From contig NZ_LT934425.1 of the NCBI RefSeq assembly GCF_900232105.1, positions 2,340,001-2,372,000 on the forward strand: a stretch of 32,000 nt of DNA, given 5' to 3'. The translations under genes and the position numbers were made by a program. The DNA comes from Candidatus Kuenenia stuttgartensis. GTDB taxonomy: Bacteria > Planctomycetota > Brocadiia > Brocadiales > Brocadiaceae. Under the pieces are notes generated by a model, which was not told the DNA's origin, searched no databases, and was given only the letters and a program-made list of their open reading frames with translations. Shown piece after piece: positions 14,832 through 24,153 of the stretch. Each line of letters begins with the position of its first letter. Position 1 is the stretch's first letter.

Positions 14832-16940
14832 ATGTTTTTGATTATGAGGTTAATGTATCGAATAGTGCCTCTTCTCTCTGTTTTGTTGAGTGTAATATCC
14901 CTGGATGCGCATGCCAGAGGGGTAAGTAGCAGCATTAAAAGCCACGTCATTGAGGTCGAATTCTCTCTGAATGAAAATAAGCTCAGAGCAGAGGATCATG
15001 TATGTGTGCAAAAGGGCGAGAGCAATGAGGTGCTGTTTCTCATCAACAAGTCGTTTAAGGTGACGTCAATAGCGTCTTCCGGTAAGGATCTGGCATTTAA
15101 GCCGGGAAAAATGGGAAATGCTCAAACAATGAAGATTACCGTCCCGGCAACGGTAAAAAGTAAGGAAACTATTTGTTTTGACATCAAATATGAAGGACTT
15201 CTTCCTTCTCTGCCTGACTCCTTCAGCGGAGAAGACATTGGCGCTACCTCCGGCATTATTGGAGAATATGGTGTTTATTTGAGTCCCGCGTGCAGATGGT
15301 ATCCCGATATGGCTGATTCACTGGCAACATTCAAGGTTACCGTCGTTATGCCGAAAGAATATGAGGCCGTAACCCAGGGGATTCTTGTGAGTAAAAAAAC
15401 AGCAGATAATAAAGTTTCTATAACGTGGGAGGAAGGCAATGTGTCCGAGGGGTGCAGCCTTGTGGCGGGGAAATATAAAGTGACGGCAGTGCGGCATAAT
15501 GATATTGACATTTACGCTTACTTTTATCCGGAAGAACAGCCCTTGGTTGATACATATTTGGATGCAACAAAACGATACCTGGATATATACCAGGATTTAA
15601 TTGGAAAATACCCGTATAAAAAATTTGCCATTGTTGAAAACTTCTTTCAAACAGGTTATGGTATGCCGTCATTTACCCTGCTGGGCAGCGAAGTAGTGAA
15701 GCTCCCCTTTATTGTTGACATTTCATTAGGGCACGAAGTTTTGCATAACTGGTGGGGAAACTCTGTTTTTGTTGATGATAGCCGGGGGAACTGGTGCGAG
15801 GGTCTCACGACCTATATGGCGGATTACTATTATAAGGAAATAAAAGGTGACGTTGCCGCAACGACCTATCGTAACGAGATTTGCAGAAAATATACCCATT
15901 ATGTTACCACGCAGAATGATTTCCCACTGAAAATGTTTCTAGGCAGAAGCGACAAGGCAACGCAGGCTATTGGATATGGAAAAACGGCAATGGTTTTCCA
16001 TATGCTGAGAAAAATGCTGGGCGATGAGGTTTTTTACCAGGCGCTCAGAGATTTTTATAAAAATATGCTGTGGCAGCGTGCGAATTGGGAGGATATTGAA
16101 AAGGTATTTGAAAAAGTGAGCGGCCTGGAATTGGCGTGGTTTTTTGATCAGTGGGTGAACAAAAAAGGCGCCCCCGTTATCGAATTGGGTGAAACGACTG
16201 TTAATAAGGAAGGAAATGCGTGGGTTGTAAAGGCTGAAATCCTGCAAAAAACGAACGAACCGTATCGTCTTCATTTGCCTGTCTACGTACAACTGGAGGA
16301 GGGCATTTTTCATACGACCGCCGAAATAAAAAACGCTTCTGACCGTATTTCCCTGCCGGTAAAATCCCGCCCCGAAAACATTGCGATAGATCCTTACACA
16401 GAGGTCTTCCGGCGCTTGCATGCGGATGAGATTCCTCCTACGATAGACCTTGTAATGGGAGACAGTAAAATTATCATCTATCCGGCAAATTGTGAAGATT
16501 CCATGAAGGTGGAATATAAGAAACTGGCGCATATCCTGGCGAATGAACGGGATTCTATTAAGGCGGATACCGAAATTACCGAAGTGGAAATAGCGCAAAC
16601 AAGCTTGTTTATACTGGGTGGCGTGGAAGAAAACAAAATAAGCAAACTCGTTCAAAATAACTTACCCGTGGGATTATCGCTCACAAAAGATGCCTTTGGC
16701 GCTGATACCGTTATGTACGGCGATAAAAAGGATGCCTTTCTGGTAACAATAAAGCATCCTTCTCATAAGGAAAAAGGGATTGCTTTGTTTGCGGGATTTA
16801 GCCCCGAAGCGATAAATAAAGCAGGATACAAAATTCAACATTATGGGAAATACAGTTATCTTGTTTTTTCTGACGGAAATAATAGGGTGAAAGAGGTCGT
16901 TAGCATCGGGGATAGCCCGCTGCAAAAAACCCTTCAATGA
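14832..16940 (+). CDS. secreted M1-family (gluzincin) zinc metallopeptidase
   Basis: 702-aa ORF with an N-terminal signal-like segment (MYRIVPLLSVLLSVISLDAHA) and the zinc site HEVLHNWWGN...NWCEGLTTY (HExxH plus a distal Glu). The start may instead be an internal Met (aa 5 or 8). Confidence 0.85.
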   Translation: MFLIMRLMYRIVPLLSVLLSVISLDAHARGVSSSIKSHVIEVEFSLNENKLRAEDHVCVQKGESNEVLFLINKSFKVTSIASSGKDLAFKPGKMGNAQTMKITVPATVKSKETICFDIKYEGLLPSLPDSFSGEDIGATSGIIGEYGVYLSPACRWYPDMADSLATFKVTVVMPKEYEAVTQGILVSKKTADNKVSITWEEGNVSEGCSLVAGKYKVTAVRHNDIDIYAYFYPEEQPLVDTYLDATKRYLDIYQDLIGKYPYKKFAIVENFFQTGYGMPSFTLLGSEVVKLPFIVDISLGHEVLHNWWGNSVFVDDSRGNWCEGLTTYMADYYYKEIKGDVAATTYRNEICRKYTHYVTTQNDFPLKMFLGRSDKATQAIGYGKTAMVFHMLRKMLGDEVFYQALRDFYKNMLWQRANWEDIEKVFEKVSGLELAWFFDQWVNKKGAPVIELGETTVNKEGNAWVVKAEILQKTNEPYRLHLPVYVQLEEGIFHTTAEIKNASDRISLPVKSRPENIAIDPYTEVFRRLHADEIPPTIDLVMGDSKIIIYPANCEDSMKVEYKKLAHILANERDSIKADTEITEVEIAQTSLFILGGVEENKISKLVQNNLPVGLSLTKDAFGADTVMYGDKKDAFLVTIKHPSHKEKGIALFAGFSPEAINKAGYKIQHYGKYSYLVFSDGNNRVKEVVSIGDSPLQKTLQ

Positions 16941-16984
16941 TTTGGTAGCTGGCATAGGCAGACCAAACAAACAATAAATAAAAA

Positions 16985-17012
16985 ATACGAAATTCGAAGT
17001 ACGAAATACGAA
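16985..17012. repeat. heptamer tandem tract ATACGAA-ATTCGAA-GTACGAA-ATACGAA
   Basis: Four phased units read directly. A single related unit (AATACGAAAA) lies at about 27072. Confidence 0.8.
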
Positions 17013-17451
17013 ACGATTTTCAAAATACAAAGTCCCAATTAAAAACCGGGTTTTGAATATTTCCTAGACTCGTTACAAACAGAGAGTTTGGGAACAAGCA
17101 GAAATTTTCCTCATTACCTCCCCCAAAGGGGGAGAATGTTCCCCGCTGGCGTGGATGCAGGAAGTGGATTCGTATTTAGCATTTCGGGTTTTACTATTAG
17201 ATTTGACTTGTCTTGCGAATATATATTGCAAAGGGTGTTTAATGGGATTTGTATTTTTGAAAGCAACATTTCATAGTTGAAATTGCTTTTGCGGGAACGG
17301 CGTGTGAAGCAGGCATATTTGCATGGTTTAATGTGTTTGAAATCAGCAACTTATGGGATATTTCAACTTTCATTTCTTTTTGTCCGGCGAGGGAACGGTT
17401 TTTGTCCGTTTACAAAGGATTGTTAAACTTTTTGGAAAACGGTGGGGCTGA

Positions 17452-18192
17452 ATGAAACAAACACTATCTTTATCTTTGTGTATTTTTGCGTGGTTTTTTT
17501 ATTGCACTCTTTTTTGTTCAGAAGAGATGCTGGCAGGTGAGCATTATACCGTGGTAGAGGTGCAGGATGGGGGATGCATTACCGGATATGTCATCCGTGG
17601 GGGGGACGCCGGGATGCCTTCAATAGACTTATATGCAGGGTGGGAATTGCCGAAATCTTCCCAGGTTATTTCTGAAAAGCTAGAAGTAAACAGGGTAAAC
17701 AACGGTGTGAAGAATGCCATCGTCTCTATTTCTAATATTGTGCGGGGAAAAAAGGGGATAGTCCCGCCAATTCATCCCGTCATAGATCAGCAAAGGGGGG
17801 TATTCGTTCCTCGTGTAACGGCTATACTCGCCGGCACAACGGTTGATTTGCTGAATGGTGATGAGGAAATGCACAACATTCATACCAAATCAATGAGAAA
17901 TCAACCTTTTAATCTTGGCATGTCGTATAAACAAAGAGTCTTGAAAAAATTTGATTATCCTGAGACGATAAAACTGTCTTGTGATATACACCATGAATAT
18001 GCCTGGATTGTTGTTTTTGGGCATCCTTATTTTGATGTAACGGATAGGAACGGATATTTTGAAATATGCGATATTCCTGAAGGCACTTATGTGTTTAGGG
18101 TATGGCATGAAGAATTAGGAAAACGAGAAAAGGAGGTAATGATACGGCCGAGAAAAACAGAAAGTATAGAGATTGTTTATGAGCAGAATTAA
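17452..18192 (+). CDS. exported cupredoxin-like plus carboxypeptidase-regulatory-like domain protein
   Basis: 246-aa ORF with an N-terminal hydrophobic signal or anchor. NGDEEMHNIHT and SCDIHHEYAWIVV resemble the N.D..HN / C.IH..M pattern of 'methylamine utilisation / plastocyanin-like' proteins. The C-terminal YFEICDIPEGTYVFRVWHE is a typical CarboxypepD_reg-like strand pattern. Confidence 0.6.
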   Translation: MKQTLSLSLCIFAWFFYCTLFCSEEMLAGEHYTVVEVQDGGCITGYVIRGGDAGMPSIDLYAGWELPKSSQVISEKLEVNRVNNGVKNAIVSISNIVRGKKGIVPPIHPVIDQQRGVFVPRVTAILAGTTVDLLNGDEEMHNIHTKSMRNQPFNLGMSYKQRVLKKFDYPETIKLSCDIHHEYAWIVVFGHPYFDVTDRNGYFEICDIPEGTYVFRVWHEELGKREKEVMIRPRKTESIEIVYEQN

Positions 18193-18276
18193 TGGGAAAT
18201 GAACATTGTAACAATGACGGGTGATTTTTAATTAGGTTTTTTTTACATTCGCAACCGGAAAGGAGGATTTGCTGAT

Positions 18277-19059
18277 ATGAAACCTAAGGGTTTATTTTAT
18301 ACATTTGGCTTTCTGAGCGCCGCAGTATTTTCCTGTGCAGTGCTGACTGTTGTCATGCGCCCTAATACTGCATCAGCAATTGAAATTCCCAAAGAAGTTA
18401 CTGAAGAAGGAAAAAATGTTTACAAGAAGTATTGTGCCCCTTGCCATGGTGAAGAGGGTGGCGGAGATGGACTACTTTCAAGATCGATGCTCCCCAAACC
18501 TCGCAATTTCACACTGGGGGCTTATAAGTTTAGGACGACACCAAGCGGTTCGCTTCCTACAGATGAAGATATTTATAGGACGATATCATATGGTGTACCA
18601 AATTCTACCATGATTCCCTGGGATATTTTAACCGAGGAGCAACGTGCTTCCGTAGTGCCGGTTCTCAAGAGTTTTTCAGAAGCCTTCGAGTATCGCGAAC
18701 CGGAACCTTCCGTTGATGTTGGTCTGCCGTTGAGACCGACAGAAAGAACCATTTTGGCAGGGAAAAAAATATATGAAGAAAAATTAGAATGCTGGAAGTG
18801 TCATGGTGTTGAAGGTCGCGGAGACGGCCCAAGCGCATCGGAACAGGAAGACGATTTTGGATTTCCGATAAAACCATTCGATTTTACTACTGGTAAGTTT
18901 AAAGGCGGCAATTCGCCAACTGATGTTTATCTGAGATTTACCACGGGCTTGAACGGAACACCAATGCCTTCTTTCGCGAAAGAACTTAGCGATGACGAAA
19001 GATGGTATTTAACCCATTATGTTATGTCACTCGTTCAACCAGAGAAATGTAGAAAATAA
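18277..19059 (+). CDS. diheme c-type cytochrome
   Basis: 260-aa ORF with AAGGAGG 10 nt upstream. It has a signal or anchor segment and two CxxCH motifs (CAPCH, CWKCH), each in a cytochrome-c-like half. Confidence 0.88.
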   Translation: MKPKGLFYTFGFLSAAVFSCAVLTVVMRPNTASAIEIPKEVTEEGKNVYKKYCAPCHGEEGGGDGLLSRSMLPKPRNFTLGAYKFRTTPSGSLPTDEDIYRTISYGVPNSTMIPWDILTEEQRASVVPVLKSFSEAFEYREPEPSVDVGLPLRPTERTILAGKKIYEEKLECWKCHGVEGRGDGPSASEQEDDFGFPIKPFDFTTGKFKGGNSPTDVYLRFTTGLNGTPMPSFAKELSDDERWYLTHYVMSLVQPEKCRK

Positions 19060-19084
19060 AAAATTAATAGTTTTCTGTCTTTAA

Positions 19085-20749
19085 ATGTTGACCATACGGA
19101 GGTGTTTTGAAATGAAAAAGATATTATTGGGCATGGTTGCGTTTGCTGTGATGTTGCCCGCTATAGTGGAATGGACTTCGGGCCAGTCAAATGTAGCCTG
19201 GGCTACAGAACAAAAAACCGAAGAGATTCCACCGCCAGATTTGTATAAGGATACGCCTGCCTGGTACCAGGCAGTTTACAAAGACAATGTTGGGCTGAGT
19301 GAGGGTTCAGGTCCATTTACCAAGTACTTTAAGGCACAGATGCTGGATATGTACTGGCAGCCGAACAGACATTATGAACCAATGGAAAATCTGGACCATT
19401 CAATTTTCATTGAACAGGAGAGGAGGGATTTGTGCGTTATATGTCACGAGGAAGCCACCCCAGGCATAGTAGCGGACTGGAGGAGTTCCGGACATAAACA
19501 TCCAAAAAGCACCCCCTATCTTTCAAGCAAGACCGCCCAGATAGAGAAAAACGTCGGCAGGGTTCTAGACGAGGTACACTGCTTTGATTGCCATGCCGAT
19601 ACGGAAAAGAATCAGATAAGGATGCCTACCGGTGAAGTATGCGGCGGATGTCATAGGCAGCAGTTTGATGAATTCCTCAGGGAAAGAGAGGTTGGCCGCC
19701 CAAACCACTTACAATCATGGGAGGCGAATACTATAGTTCCTTGGTATGCAGAGGCTGCGAGAAGGGGCTATTTATATGGACAGCATGGTTGTGATATGTG
19801 CCATTCCGGGGCTGAAAAGTGCGATGTTTGTCATACCAGGCACAAGTTCAGCGCTGTAGAGGGCAGGCAGCCAGAAGCCTGTATGACGTGCCATATGGGT
19901 CCTGATCATCCTGATGCAGAATCCTATGGCGAATCAAAACATGGCAAGATTTATGAAAAAGAGGAAGAACATTACGACTTTACAAAGCCACTCGTAGAAG
20001 TTCGTCCCGGAGAGGATTATCGTACGCCTACATGTCAGTACTGCCACATGTACGAAAAACATGGCAGATTTATTCATAATCCTGTTATGAAGGGTATTTG
20101 GCGTATGGGAACGGTTCCGCCTTCTAACTTAGAGTATACCTCTTCGCTCAAGGACTATCCTTACGGAATTAAGATCATCGCAGATAAGATCGATATTTAC
20201 TCAGAGGAAAATGTTGCCAAGAGGTCATATTGGTTAGAGGTTTGCGCTAAGTGCCATAGCGACCGTTTTGCGGATACCTACCTGAAATCATTGGATCAAT
20301 TCATGTTTCAGGCGCACACCCTTGCTGATCAGGCGCAAAAAATCGTTGAAGACCTGATTGCTGATGGTCTTTTATATCCTGATGCAGCGAACAGAGATCC
20401 CTATCCGTTAAGCGATGGGATTGTTAAAGAACTTAGTGCGGATTTCCTTGGCGAACCGGTTTATAATGCATTTAAGACGCTCCAGGGTAAATTCCCTGTT
20501 GTAGGACCTATTCTTGGCGTCTATGGTATGTTCTTGCAAATGCAGGATAATCCGTCTGACATCGAAAATATGTACAACAGATTATGGTTCTGGTATAAAC
20601 TACAGGGGTACAAAGGAACTGCACACGCCCAGCAGGATGTTTCATGGTGGTGGGGACAGGCTCCTATGATGATGGAAATGACAAGGATACAGGCAGAAGC
20701 TGCTCGTTTACGCAGATTAGCCGGGATTGAAAAGACAATCTCCAAGTAA
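19085..20749 (+). CDS. octaheme hydroxylamine-oxidoreductase-like (HAO family) cytochrome c
   Basis: Eight CxxCH motifs are present: CVICH, CFDCH, CGGCH, CDMCH, CDVCH, CMTCH, CQYCH, CAKCH. The likely true start is the ATG at 19112 (MKKILLGMVAFAV... signal peptide), with GGAGG 9 nt upstream. Confidence 0.9.
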   Translation: MLTIRRCFEMKKILLGMVAFAVMLPAIVEWTSGQSNVAWATEQKTEEIPPPDLYKDTPAWYQAVYKDNVGLSEGSGPFTKYFKAQMLDMYWQPNRHYEPMENLDHSIFIEQERRDLCVICHEEATPGIVADWRSSGHKHPKSTPYLSSKTAQIEKNVGRVLDEVHCFDCHADTEKNQIRMPTGEVCGGCHRQQFDEFLREREVGRPNHLQSWEANTIVPWYAEAARRGYLYGQHGCDMCHSGAEKCDVCHTRHKFSAVEGRQPEACMTCHMGPDHPDAESYGESKHGKIYEKEEEHYDFTKPLVEVRPGEDYRTPTCQYCHMYEKHGRFIHNPVMKGIWRMGTVPPSNLEYTSSLKDYPYGIKIIADKIDIYSEENVAKRSYWLEVCAKCHSDRFADTYLKSLDQFMFQAHTLADQAQKIVEDLIADGLLYPDAANRDPYPLSDGIVKELSADFLGEPVYNAFKTLQGKFPVVGPILGVYGMFLQMQDNPSDIENMYNRLWFWYKLQGYKGTAHAQQDVSWWWGQAPMMMEMTRIQAEAARLRRLAGIEKTISK

Positions 20750-20776
20750 AAGAGCGACGGCATACAAAAATAAAAA

Positions 20777-20810
20777 GCCCATGATATGTATAATATCATG
20801 GGCTTTTTTT
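20777..20810 (+). terminator. rho-independent terminator of the HAO-like operon
   Basis: GCCCATGATAT-GTATA-ATATCATGGGC followed by TTTTTTT, 28 nt after the stop codon. Confidence 0.85.
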
Positions 20811-20910
20811 ATTAAATGCGGACAAACATGAGAAAGTTGTAATATACTCAAGATGCTTATAAAATGTGAATTCTAAGTTGTTAATAGGGTGGCACTGATT
20901 TTATTTTATG

Positions 20911-20949
20911 GTTGGGTGGGTTAAAACGATAGCGAATTCACCTTCCCAG
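20911..20949 (+). repeat. family E partial copy
   Basis: GGTTGGGTGGGTTAAAACGATAGCGAATTCACCTTCCCA parallels the 5' half of 21111..21200 (GTAGGGTGGATTAAGCGACAGCGAATCCACCTTTCCA). Confidence 0.55.
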
Positions 20950-21027
20950 CTATAACACTACAACGGTATTTTTATTTCAGATATTGCGGCAATTTTTTGT
21001 ATACTTCATCTGAAAATGAAAGAAACT

Positions 21028-21058
21028 ACCCTGACAGGGTTTGGAACCCTGTCAGGGT
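21028..21058. repeat. perfect 14-bp-stem hairpin (ACCCTGACAGGGTT-TGG-AACCCTGTCAGGGT)
   Basis: Read directly. It lies mid-spacer, 280 nt past the HAO-like stop and after the real terminator, so it is not needed for termination. Confidence 0.8.
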
Positions 21059-21110
21059 TAATACACCATGCTTGCAAATACTATGTTGTTTCATTTGGTG
21101 TTTCAAACGC

Positions 21111-21200
21111 GTAGGGTGGATTAAGCGACAGCGAATCCACCTTTCCATATTAATAATTGTTGGATTCGGTGCGAAAAAACCGCGCCTTAATCCATCCTAC
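21111..21200 (+). repeat. dispersed structured repeat, family E, copy 2
   Basis: GTAGGGTGGATTAAGCGACAGCGAATCCACC...GGATTCGGTGCGAAAAAACCGCGCCTTAATCCATCCTAC. The outer arms GTAGGGTGGATTAAG / CTTAATCCATCCTAC pair, and there is an inner hairpin GGTGGATT...AATCCACC. Confidence 0.75.
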
Positions 21201-21327
21201 TGCTTGACGGATTTTACCCACACCACATGATGGGGGAAAACTTATCATATTCTTGTGCAGGACGTAAGAATAAAATGTCGCTGTAGTGATAATTGCTTTT
21301 TAACAAATATACAAGAACTTACAAAAA

Positions 21328-24153
21328 ATGAAACACTCTATTGTCGCTTGCGGTATACGTGTACATAATTTAAAAAATATTGACGTTGAAATTCCACATA
21401 ACAAATTAGTTGTCATTACGGGTGTGAGCGGTTCTGGCAAGTCCAGCCTTGCATTTGATACCCTTTTTGCAGAGGGACAAAGAAGGTATGTGGAATCTTT
21501 TTCTGCTTACGCGCGGCAATTTCTTGAAAAAATGGACAAGCCTGATGTCGATCACATAGAAGGTATCCTGCCTGCAATCGCTATTCAGCAGAAAAATCCT
21601 GTAAAAAACCGTCGTTCGACTGTAGGCACCGCAACAGAAATCAACGATTACCTGCGGTTGCTCTATGCCCGCATTGGAAAGACGTATTGTAAAAGCTGCA
21701 AGCGGCAGGTACGGATTGACACTGTTTCGCATATTGTAGAATTTATACTCTCCTTGCCGGAGGGCACGAAATTTCTAGTCACATTTCCTCTCAATATCAG
21801 CCAAAAAATTTCGGGTGAGGAACAAATAAATCTCCTGAAAGAACGCGGCATAGTGAGAATCCTGGCTGATAACGACATTGTTGACATCACGAACGAACAA
21901 AACAGTTTTGACATCCGTGCCGCAAAGACTGTGTACGGAATTATCGACCGGCTGGTTGTAAAATACACAATAAAAGACCGCCTTATCGATTCTCTGGAAA
22001 CCTCATACCGTATGGGTTCAGGGCACTTAAGTATCTTTTATACTAACGATGCGCTTTCCAGTGAAGCGATAAAACCATCAACAGATGATCTTGTGCGCAT
22101 TCAGGATTCACCATGGGTTGAAATGAAATATAGCAAAAAGTTTTTTTGCAGTTATTGTGCAATTGAATACCCCGAACCGTCCCCTGCCTTATTTTCCTTT
22201 AATAATCCAATAGGGGCATGCCCCAAATGCCAGGGATTCGGTCACACGATAGACATAGATATGGATGCCGTTATTCCCGATAAAGAGAAATCTCTTGAAC
22301 AGGGTGCGATAGTTCCCTGGAATACCCCCGCATACAGGGAGTTGTATGAGGAACTTGAATCTGCCGCCTCAAAATATGACATTCCCATGGATGTTCCTTT
22401 CCGGAAATTGACAAAAAAACAGTTGAATCTGCTTTTTGAAGGAACAAAGGATTTTTGCGGTATTAACGAATTTTTCAACTGGCTGGAAGGCCGAAAATAC
22501 AAGATACACGTTCGTGTTATCCTTAGCAAATACAGGGGCTATAATGTGTGCCGCACCTGCGAAGGAACCCGATTGAAAAAAGAGGCGCTTACCATAGTAA
22601 TTCAGCAGAGAAGTATTGCGGAAGTTTGCACTATGACCATAGAACAGGCGCACATGTTCTTTCAAAAGCTGCAGCTTTCTGACTATGAAAGAAATATTGC
22701 GCACTTAATCCTGCAGGAGATAACAAAACGTCTTGGCTATATGATCAAGGTCGGACTCGGATACCTCACTCTGGACCGTATGACTCGTACGTTATCAGGC
22801 GGTGAAGCCCAAAGGGTAAATCTTACCACATCATTAGGTTCTTCTCTGGTAAACACCTTGTACATACTGGATGAACCGAGCGTAGGGCTACATCCCAGGG
22901 ATACTGACCGGTTGATTCATATACTGACGCGGTTAAGGGACATTGGAAATACCGTTGTTGTGGTGGAGCATGATGCGGAGGTTATAAAGAACTCAGATAT
23001 GATTATTGATTTAGGACCCGGCGCCGGAGAAAACGGAGGGAGGCTTGTTTATCATGGCACCTTTGCACAACTGCCCGCAAATAACTGTTCTCTGACTGGG
23101 CAGTATTTAAAAGGAGAAAAGGCGATAAAAATACCTTCTTCCCGGAGAAAGCCTTCCAGAAAGGCTATCGTTTTAAAAGGCGCGTCGCAAAATAATTTAA
23201 AAAATATCGATGTCACATTTCCGCTTAATATGCTAGTCTGTGTGACGGGCGTTTCGGGGTCGGGAAAGAGTACGCTCGTACAGGATACTCTTTACGGCGC
23301 ACTGAAAAAGAAGCTGGGAATTTATTCAGGGTTTGTGGGAAAACATACGGCCATTGAAGGTGAGAGGTTTATCAATGACATCCTTCTCGTTGATCAATCC
23401 CCTATTGGGCGCACACCACGTTCTAATCCCGTAACGTATATAAAAATATTCGATGAAATAAGAAAACTTTTTGCCTTCACGAGGGAGGCAAAAGCGCGCA
23501 AATTGACCATCGGTTCATTCTCTTTTAATATTGCCGGCGGAAGATGTGAGTTTTGCGAAGGCGCGGGATATGTAAAGGTTGATATGCAATTTCTTGCTGA
23601 TATCTTTGTCACATGTGAGAAATGCGGCGGAAAGCGGTTTAACAAAAAAGTACTAGAGGTGAAATATAAAAATAAAAATATCCATGAAGTTCTGAGCATA
23701 ACGGTGGATGAAGCAATTGAATTTTTTCGTGAATCTGTGAATATCACAAAGGTATTGAAGTGTTTGCAGGAAACCGGGCTAGGTTATTTAAAATTGGGTC
23801 AGCCAGCAACAACCTTGTCGGGGGGTGAAGCGCAACGTCTCAAGGTATCCACGTATATATCGCAGGAAAATATGGAGTCAATGCTCTTTGTCTTTGACGA
23901 ACCAACCATCGGCCTGCATATGGATGACATTCAGAAATTACTGAATTGTTTTCAAAGATTGCTCCAGGCGGGACATTCTCTCATCGTGGTGGAACATAAC
24001 CTTGATATTATTAAATCCTCCGATTATATTATCGACCTTGGCCCTGAAGGGGGCAATGAAGGGGGATATGTAATCGGATGCGGAACGCCGGAGAAAATTT
24101 CTAAAATAAAAACAAGCCATACGGGCGCATACTTAAAACCATACTTTTTGTAA
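21328..24153 (+). CDS. uvrA: excinuclease ABC subunit A
   Basis: 941-aa ORF collinear with canonical UvrA. It has two Walker A sites (GVSGSGKSSLAFDTL, GVSGSGKSTLVQDTL), two ABC signatures (LSGGEAQRVNL, LSGGEAQRLKV) and zinc modules (CSYC...ACPKCQGFG, CRTCEGTRL, GGRCEFCEGAG...CEKCGGKRF). Confidence 0.94.
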   Translation: MKHSIVACGIRVHNLKNIDVEIPHNKLVVITGVSGSGKSSLAFDTLFAEGQRRYVESFSAYARQFLEKMDKPDVDHIEGILPAIAIQQKNPVKNRRSTVGTATEINDYLRLLYARIGKTYCKSCKRQVRIDTVSHIVEFILSLPEGTKFLVTFPLNISQKISGEEQINLLKERGIVRILADNDIVDITNEQNSFDIRAAKTVYGIIDRLVVKYTIKDRLIDSLETSYRMGSGHLSIFYTNDALSSEAIKPSTDDLVRIQDSPWVEMKYSKKFFCSYCAIEYPEPSPALFSFNNPIGACPKCQGFGHTIDIDMDAVIPDKEKSLEQGAIVPWNTPAYRELYEELESAASKYDIPMDVPFRKLTKKQLNLLFEGTKDFCGINEFFNWLEGRKYKIHVRVILSKYRGYNVCRTCEGTRLKKEALTIVIQQRSIAEVCTMTIEQAHMFFQKLQLSDYERNIAHLILQEITKRLGYMIKVGLGYLTLDRMTRTLSGGEAQRVNLTTSLGSSLVNTLYILDEPSVGLHPRDTDRLIHILTRLRDIGNTVVVVEHDAEVIKNSDMIIDLGPGAGENGGRLVYHGTFAQLPANNCSLTGQYLKGEKAIKIPSSRRKPSRKAIVLKGASQNNLKNIDVTFPLNMLVCVTGVSGSGKSTLVQDTLYGALKKKLGIYSGFVGKHTAIEGERFINDILLVDQSPIGRTPRSNPVTYIKIFDEIRKLFAFTREAKARKLTIGSFSFNIAGGRCEFCEGAGYVKVDMQFLADIFVTCEKCGGKRFNKKVLEVKYKNKNIHEVLSITVDEAIEFFRESVNITKVLKCLQETGLGYLKLGQPATTLSGGEAQRLKVSTYISQENMESMLFVFDEPTIGLHMDDIQKLLNCFQRLLQAGHSLIVVEHNLDIIKSSDYIIDLGPEGGNEGGYVIGCGTPEKISKIKTSHTGAYLKPYFL

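Follow-up and report, generated by a model that had tools for sequence, protein, structure and literature searches.

In anammox bacteria without NirS and NirK, the nitrite reductase has long been sought, and the leading candidate is HAOr, the complex of Kustc0458 and Kustc0457 of Candidatus Kuenenia stuttgartiensis, which was reportedly the subject of a 2019 study by Dietl. Kustc0458, an octaheme protein of the HAO family, and Kustc0457, a diheme cytochrome c, purify together in equal proportion as an alpha6beta6 complex with 60 hemes, and the purified and crystallised material contains only these two proteins and no third chain (Ferousi 2021, PMC8042395; PDB 6H5L). The complex reduces nitrite to nitric oxide (NO) and is incapable of oxidising hydroxylamine or hydrazine, and its HAO subunit lacks the tyrosine cross-link (PMC8042395). 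Electrons enter at the diheme subunits and travel along the ring of hemes in the HAO trimer until they reach a five-coordinate catalytic heme; the nitrite/NO couple lies at +380 mV, and the NO formed serves hydrazine synthase (PMC8042395). The adjacent gene, kustc0456, has already been given as encoding a blue-copper-type protein and possible redox partner by Kartal et al., as relayed in PMC12053348, and the proteome tables of strain CSTR1 carry the same annotation (PMC11897245). We analysed a window of 32,000 nucleotides (contig NZ_LT934425.1, positions 2,340,001 to 2,372,000 of the forward strand) which, judged by sequence identity, contains kustc0456-kustc0457-kustc0458, the characterised HAOr locus of this organism. 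On balance we read the locus as the known HAOr pair accompanied by Kustc0456 as a low-abundance copper electron carrier that probably binds the complex transiently and is not a stable subunit.

Three open reading frames (ORFs) lie on the + strand at 17452-18192 (246 aa), 18277-19059 (260 aa) and 19085-20749 (554 aa), as a first-pass annotation of this DNA had stated, and the intergenic gaps are 84 and 25 nt when ORF3 is started at 19085. ORF2 matches chain B of PDB 6H5L with 100% identity over its residues 35-260, and ORF3 matches chain A equally well over its residues 38-554 (in the 554-aa numbering). The window is therefore from Ca. Kuenenia stuttgartiensis, and the two genes are kustc0457, encoding the beta subunit of the HAOr complex (18277..19059, +), and kustc0458, encoding the HAO-family nitrite reductase HAOr itself (19112..20749, +, 545 aa from its probable start). 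The annotation had pointed out a Kustc0457/Kustc0458-like architecture; the pair turns out to be those very proteins. ORF2 has two heme motifs (CAPCH and CWKCH) and matches the Pfam families Cytochrom_C and Cytochrome_CBB3, and ORF3 has exactly eight CxxCH motifs and matches PF13447 (E = 1.8e-55), which places it in the multiheme HAO family and bears out the earlier description of a diheme and an octaheme product. Compared with the crystallised complex, the locus encodes the same proteins with the same 8+2 hemes, the same absence of a tyrosine cross-link and the same gene adjacency, the sole difference being the probable start of ORF3 (19112 instead of 19085). The three-gene finding is correct but already known, as the locus, the complex and the idea of kustc0456 as a redox partner are all in the literature.

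The first-pass annotation had cited as established that Kustc0458 lacks the cross-link and forms NO from nitrite, and had proposed aligning HAO proteins at the cross-linking tyrosine. When the 10 HAO paralogues of this genome are aligned, the corresponding column holds Trp521 in Kustc0458, Tyr451 in HOX (the paralogue used was confirmed to be PDB 4N4J) and tyrosine in both HDH copies, so that the absence of the cross-linking residue stands, in agreement with PMC8042395. The two closest paralogues of Kustc0458 (584 and 852 aa, 50-51% identity; G000:C1 4108723-4110522 and 3713479-3716040) also have tryptophan in place of the tyrosine and for this reason are likely to be reductive HAOs as well.

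Kustc0456 (17452..18192, +) has an N-terminal signal peptide and no TMHMM helix (PMC11897245 Table S1). An AlphaFold2 model built with 42 relatives has a mean pLDDT (predicted local distance difference test) of 84.7, and the top Foldseek matches of this model are the NirK cupredoxin domain, amicyanin, the Nitrosopumilus purple cupredoxin, plastocyanin and pseudoazurin (probability 1.0, TM-score 0.65-0.72 on the target). The predicted fold supports the earlier label of a cupredoxin-like protein. In a comparison of the cupredoxin-domain profile with the PDB, the NirK cupredoxin domain scored best (E = 1e-5), followed by the Nitrosopumilus cupredoxin 5FC9 (E = 3e-5), with amicyanin at E = 0.01. 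The cupredoxin signal is seen only with the domain profile and the fold search; a PDB search with the single 246-aa sequence gave only weak Ig-like scaffoldin matches to the C-terminal domain, and NCBIfam has no family for the protein.

The model predicts an amicyanin-like cupredoxin domain at about residues 85-190, which probably sits inside a CarboxypepD_reg-like beta-sandwich made up of a strand at 41-49 and residues 190-246. We infer the nesting because the strand is conserved with a GG-x-I-x-G motif, because model confidence is high there, and because the Pfam match begins at profile position 27. That match (PF13620 / PF13715, residues 190-242) scores 24.3 bits in Kustc0456, below the cut-off of 32.3, which is passed by the relatives P0073, P0075 and L078. 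His141, Cys177 and His180 (codons 17872-17874, 17980-17982 and 17989-17991 of the + strand) are invariant in the 42 relatives, and the histidine of the HN motif and the C-x2-H loop fall on the copper-ligand columns of amicyanin, plastocyanin and the NirK cupredoxin domain. Kustc0456 is predicted to have kept the His-Cys-His equatorial copper ligands.

Published expression data answer the call of the first-pass annotation for a co-expression check. Expression of kustc0456, kustc0457 and kustc0458 decreased together in a NO-fed reactor, by 15.6-, 39.1- and 27.8-fold (PMC6423088 and supplement), and kustc0457 and kustc0456 were significantly down-regulated upon hydrazine exposure (PMC12053348); the three genes are co-regulated. 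Their products behave differently in fractionation. Mass spectrometric intensities are 6.0e8 for Kustc0456, 9.8e9 for Kustc0458 and 9.1e9 for Kustc0457, which makes Kustc0456 about 16-fold less abundant than the complex subunits (PMC11897245 Table S1). In ultracentrifugation Kustc0456 was 58% soluble, whereas 82-83% of Kustc0458 and Kustc0457 was in the pellet, and in size-exclusion chromatography (SEC) Kustc0456 peaked in fraction F20, next to the small NaxLS pair in F21, and Kustc0458 and Kustc0457 peaked in F8; both complex subunits have signal peptides, with 0 and 1 TMHMM helix, respectively (PMC11897245 Table S1). Co-elution of Kustc0456 with Kustc0458 and Kustc0457 is not seen in these published SEC and ultracentrifugation profiles. 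By the fractionation and abundance data, Kustc0456 can be no more than a soluble partner that meets HAOr transiently, not a stable subunit or anchor, and its profile is as expected for a minor soluble carrier.

The gene order cupredoxin-diheme cytochrome-HAO, with spacers of similar length, occurs in all 33 named Brocadiaceae (f1) loci wherever the contig allows, from genera that include Kuenenia, Brocadia, Jettenia, Wunengus and Loosdrechtia, and also in a genome of one further anammox family (f5). A transient electron-shuttle role for Kustc0456 is plausible. In the mechanism we propose, Kustc0456 would be exported by the Sec route as a soluble, periplasm-type (anammoxosomal) copper carrier, would dock transiently on the HAOr complex and would give electrons to, or exchange them with, its diheme subunit at a potential near that of the nitrite/NO couple. 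It might also link HAOr to the blue-copper proteins of the same family that are associated with NXR, which the literature treats as high-potential carriers working near +400 mV. When a type-1 copper site loses its axial methionine, its potential usually rises by about 100 mV, provided that no water moves in (PMC12109610). A shift of this size in a protein that, as described below, has lost this residue, taken together with the +380 mV of the nitrite/NO couple and the values near +400 mV of the NXR-cluster carriers, makes an electron role among nitrite-converting enzymes reasonable.

A number of observations weigh against this assignment. Copper binding by Kustc0456 is a prediction from its residues, and electron transfer between it and HAOr is something we infer; the Pfam cupredoxin models PF00127 and PF13473 find nothing above threshold on the protein; the distant relative P0075 passes the PF00127 cut-off of 21.2 with 23.3 bits. 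The ligand loop of Kustc0456 reads CDIHHEYAW and has no axial methionine two to four residues past the loop histidine. A long stem branch (0.86) with full support leads to the Brocadiaceae kustc0456 clade, and kustc0456 is the least conserved of the three genes, with 55-60% identity between Kuenenia and the other genera as compared with 75-80% for kustc0457 and 80-84% for kustc0458. In the Scalinduaceae (family f4), the diheme-HAO pair is present at all 21 loci that encode a Kustc0457 orthologue, and no homologue of the cupredoxin or its paralogues lies upstream within the sequence searched, mostly about 1.3-1.5 kb and shorter in four; HAOr does not, therefore, need kustc0456. A conserved element in the spacer between kustc0456 and kustc0457, described below, together with the 16-fold difference in abundance, also suggests partly separate expression of the cupredoxin and the pair.

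The loss of the methionine can be placed in time. In orthologues from other genera the loop reads CD[IL]HK[KNDRH][SAT]YAW, and in all orthologues the methionine position is deleted or occupied by alanine, serine or threonine. The HAOr-linked copy of the f5 genome retains the methionine (CDVHKWM) and branches as the sister of the Brocadiaceae clade in a maximum-likelihood tree (support 95/88). This topology, with the long stem of the Brocadiaceae clade, argues that the gene joined the HAOr locus first and that the methionine was lost later, with accelerated change and in the Brocadiaceae clade only. His144 was considered as a replacement for the methionine and rejected, as it also occurs in relatives that keep the methionine.

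The wider family of nested cupredoxins comprises 3650 representative clusters at E <= 1e-10. Among the best 150 of these representatives, 127 have a C-x2-H-x2-M loop and 8 have a loop without methionine; glutamate or threonine in place of the axial methionine is found in a minority of the family. Members also occur within proteins of 2000-3000 aa, and a copy on an Acidobacteria contig (L078) adjoins a cytochrome c gene. The Kuenenia genome has five members, and the four paralogues of kustc0456 (L002-L005; G000:C1 257070-257825, 1571850-1572641, 1590791-1591549 and 3147810-3148469) all have the C-x2-H-x2-M loop with the spacing of amicyanin. Two of them flank the NXR cluster, one directly adjoining the gene of the 1148-aa NxrA. 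Paralogue L004 lies directly 5' of the gene of a 469-aa protein which has two heme motifs and no Pfam match.

Three described groups of copper protein come closest to Kustc0456. It shares the predicted Greek-key fold and the aligned HN-motif histidine and C-x2-H loop with type-1 cupredoxins of the amicyanin/plastocyanin kind (Paracoccus amicyanin, PDB 1AAC/1ID2), and its wider family shares the C-x2-H-x2-M spacing of amicyanin. Kustc0456 and its Brocadiaceae orthologues differ from these proteins in having no axial methionine, in scoring below threshold with the Pfam cupredoxin models, and in a cupredoxin domain that appears to be embedded in a CarboxypepD_reg-like beta-sandwich and not free-standing. 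The blue copper proteins of the NXR cluster, kustd1699 and kustd1713, belong to the same family (36-41% identity), have the same two-domain layout and are likewise encoded beside a nitrite-converting enzyme, but they keep the axial methionine (CNVHAEM and CDVHKWM) and are linked to NXR, whereas Kustc0456 is without it and linked to HAOr. Nmar_1307 of Nitrosopumilus maritimus (PDB 5FC9) is also a mononuclear His2Cys cupredoxin without axial methionine from an organism of the nitrogen cycle. The similarity is remote; the archaeal protein has a single domain and an arginine at the methionine position, where the Kustc0456 orthologues have alanine, serine, threonine or a deletion.

The first-pass annotation had suggested that the 246-aa protein could be an unrecognised third component of the complex, such as an assembly or anchoring factor. 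The protein is not unrecognised, being kustc0456 of the literature (PMC12053348, PMC11897245), and that it should belong stably to the complex as a third subunit, anchor it to the membrane or assist its assembly is very improbable indeed. The gene neighbours the pair on the same strand, is regulated together with it and keeps its position in the Brocadiaceae, as such a subunit would lead one to expect, but the complex, both when purified and in crystals, is an alpha6beta6 assembly of Kustc0458 and Kustc0457 only, with two chain types in PDB 6H5L, and Kustc0456 elutes in F20 and not in F8, is mainly soluble where the pair pellets, is some 16 times scarcer, has no TMHMM helix, and has no gene at any of the 21 Scalinduaceae loci. 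These data contradict a third component and have largely refuted that reading already. A complete lack of functional connection with HAOr, with a gene order merely inherited in one lineage and a protein that works in a different pathway or has given up copper binding, is improbable for other reasons. The missing gene in the Scalinduaceae loci, the fast sequence evolution, the disrupted-looking copies in two metagenome-assembled genomes (MAGs), and an M1-peptidase gene that is equally syntenic without an obvious functional link would all fit this explanation. It is opposed by the invariance of the two histidines and the cysteine across all orthologues, by the 15.6-fold fall of kustc0456 together with kustc0457 and kustc0458 upon nitrite withdrawal, by the retention of the linkage in two families (f1 and f5), and by the fact that the protein is expressed.

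The absent methionine itself suggests another possibility, which we regard as unlikely though less so than those two. Kustc0456 might be a copper protein with an open axial site which binds or converts NO, nitrite or hydroxylamine, and which might act on NO that escapes from HAOr by scavenging, sensing or re-oxidising it. The methionine was lost specifically in the HAOr-linked clade of the Brocadiaceae, leaving alanine, serine, threonine or a deletion; the long, fully supported stem branch of that clade suggests a change of function; loops without methionine are confined to 8 of the best 150 family representatives; and Nmar_1307, the second-best profile match, is also without it (CSFHPWR). For this purple cupredoxin an axial water and the oxidation of NO to nitrite have been reported. 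Low abundance, however, suits a carrier as well as it suits a scavenger. Electron transfer usually stays the sole function of type-1 sites without methionine, such as those of laccases. A more particular history, in which loss of the methionine after the gene had settled beside a nitrite reductase turned a carrier into an open-site protein that handles NO, nitrite or hydroxylamine at the enzyme's exit, much as in Nmar_1307, would be more doubtful still. The transient carrier therefore remains the reading we prefer, and the loss of methionine in the Brocadiaceae clade only, the apparent nesting of the domain, the absence from the Scalinduaceae and the fractionation behaviour sharpen the question of the electron donor to HAOr. 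These four details leave the overall picture unchanged and add no new system.

The first-pass annotation had also called for the gene order to be examined across the Brocadiales. The three-gene order holds in the 33 Brocadiaceae loci and in f5, and gives way to the pair alone at the 21 Scalinduaceae loci. Family f4 was named Scalinduaceae from a protein of genus g24, whose cluster of identical proteins bears the names Ca. Scalindua arabica and Scalindua sp. An unlinked orthologue of kustc0456 elsewhere in the Scalinduaceae was considered and rejected, since in the tree the best Scalinduaceae copies group by themselves and not with the kustc0456 clade. The comparison of loci indicates that the diheme-HAO pair, which is common to Brocadiaceae, f5 and Scalinduaceae, is the core module and that the cupredoxin, missing from the Scalinduaceae loci, is a lineage-restricted addition.

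The start of ORF3 is most likely the second ATG, at 19112 (Met10), which gives a protein of 545 aa and a second intergenic gap of 52 nt. A GGAGGTG lies 7 nt 5' of 19112, a Shine-Dalgarno-like sequence was not found before 19085, and the orthologues align from residue 9 onwards only. The gaps of 84 and 25 nt given by the first-pass annotation are right for the first and, as counted from 19085, for the second, which is 52 nt from the likelier start. Its strong ribosome-binding sequences are present before ORF2, where the match is a perfect AAAGGAGGA, and before ORF3 if translation begins at 19112; the sequence upstream of ORF1 offers only GGTGGGG. The single strong terminator proposed downstream of the genes was confirmed by folding. 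A hairpin at 20772-20808, followed by a run of T, has a folding energy of -27.5 kcal/mol (z = -7.3), which none of 200 shuffled sequences equalled; the whole bidirectional intrinsic terminator, with its 16-bp hairpin and T run, spans 20772..20812 (+). The same test found no significant hairpin in either intergenic gap.

The presumed promoter region of kustc0456 is the 421-nt intergenic sequence at 17031..17451 (+). A scan for consensus promoters found no site on the + strand before ORF1 or inside the 84-nt spacer, and an Rfam scan of 16800-21400 returned no family at E <= 0.1. Among 23 aligned spacers between kustc0456 and kustc0457, whose sources include Kuenenia, Brocadia, Jettenia, Wunengus and Loosdrechtia, conservation across at least six genera is seen in the 3' half but not in the 5' half. 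The conserved element, at 18232..18267 (+) and including the Shine-Dalgarno sequence of kustc0457, has the family consensus TTAGG-TTTATAAAAT-GCAAT-GGAAAGGAGGA, and a similar AT-rich ATTTATTAATGA box precedes the diheme gene of Scalindua. From its conservation, the element may be an internal promoter or leader for kustc0457 and kustc0458, and it is this possibility that leaves a single-promoter operon unestablished. The diheme-HAO pair is probably served by further expression signals that belong to it alone, and an internal promoter or leader in the spacer could explain the higher level of the Kustc0457/8 pair.

Conservation of the neighbourhood extends beyond the three genes. A gene for an M1-family peptidase (PF01433) at 14832-16940 (+) of the window occupies the same upstream position in 30 of the 33 Brocadiaceae loci (L045-L077), with 50-59% identity outside the genus, and the conserved order therefore comprises four genes in this family. 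The spacer between the peptidase match and the cupredoxin match is about 250-520 nt in the Brocadiaceae loci, comparable to the 421-nt upstream region here. In the f5 genome a different ORF with a heme motif takes the place of the M1 peptidase. Two kustc0456 orthologues appear disrupted and may represent pseudogenes or assembly errors, one with an in-frame stop in a Brocadiaceae MAG (L070:6161-6448) and one split over two frames in an assembly of Ca. Brocadia carolinensis (L071:4004-4740). At 16978-17012 of the window, just past the peptidase gene and at the start of the long spacer that precedes kustc0456, there are tandem heptamer-like repeats of the ATACGAA/GTACGAA type.

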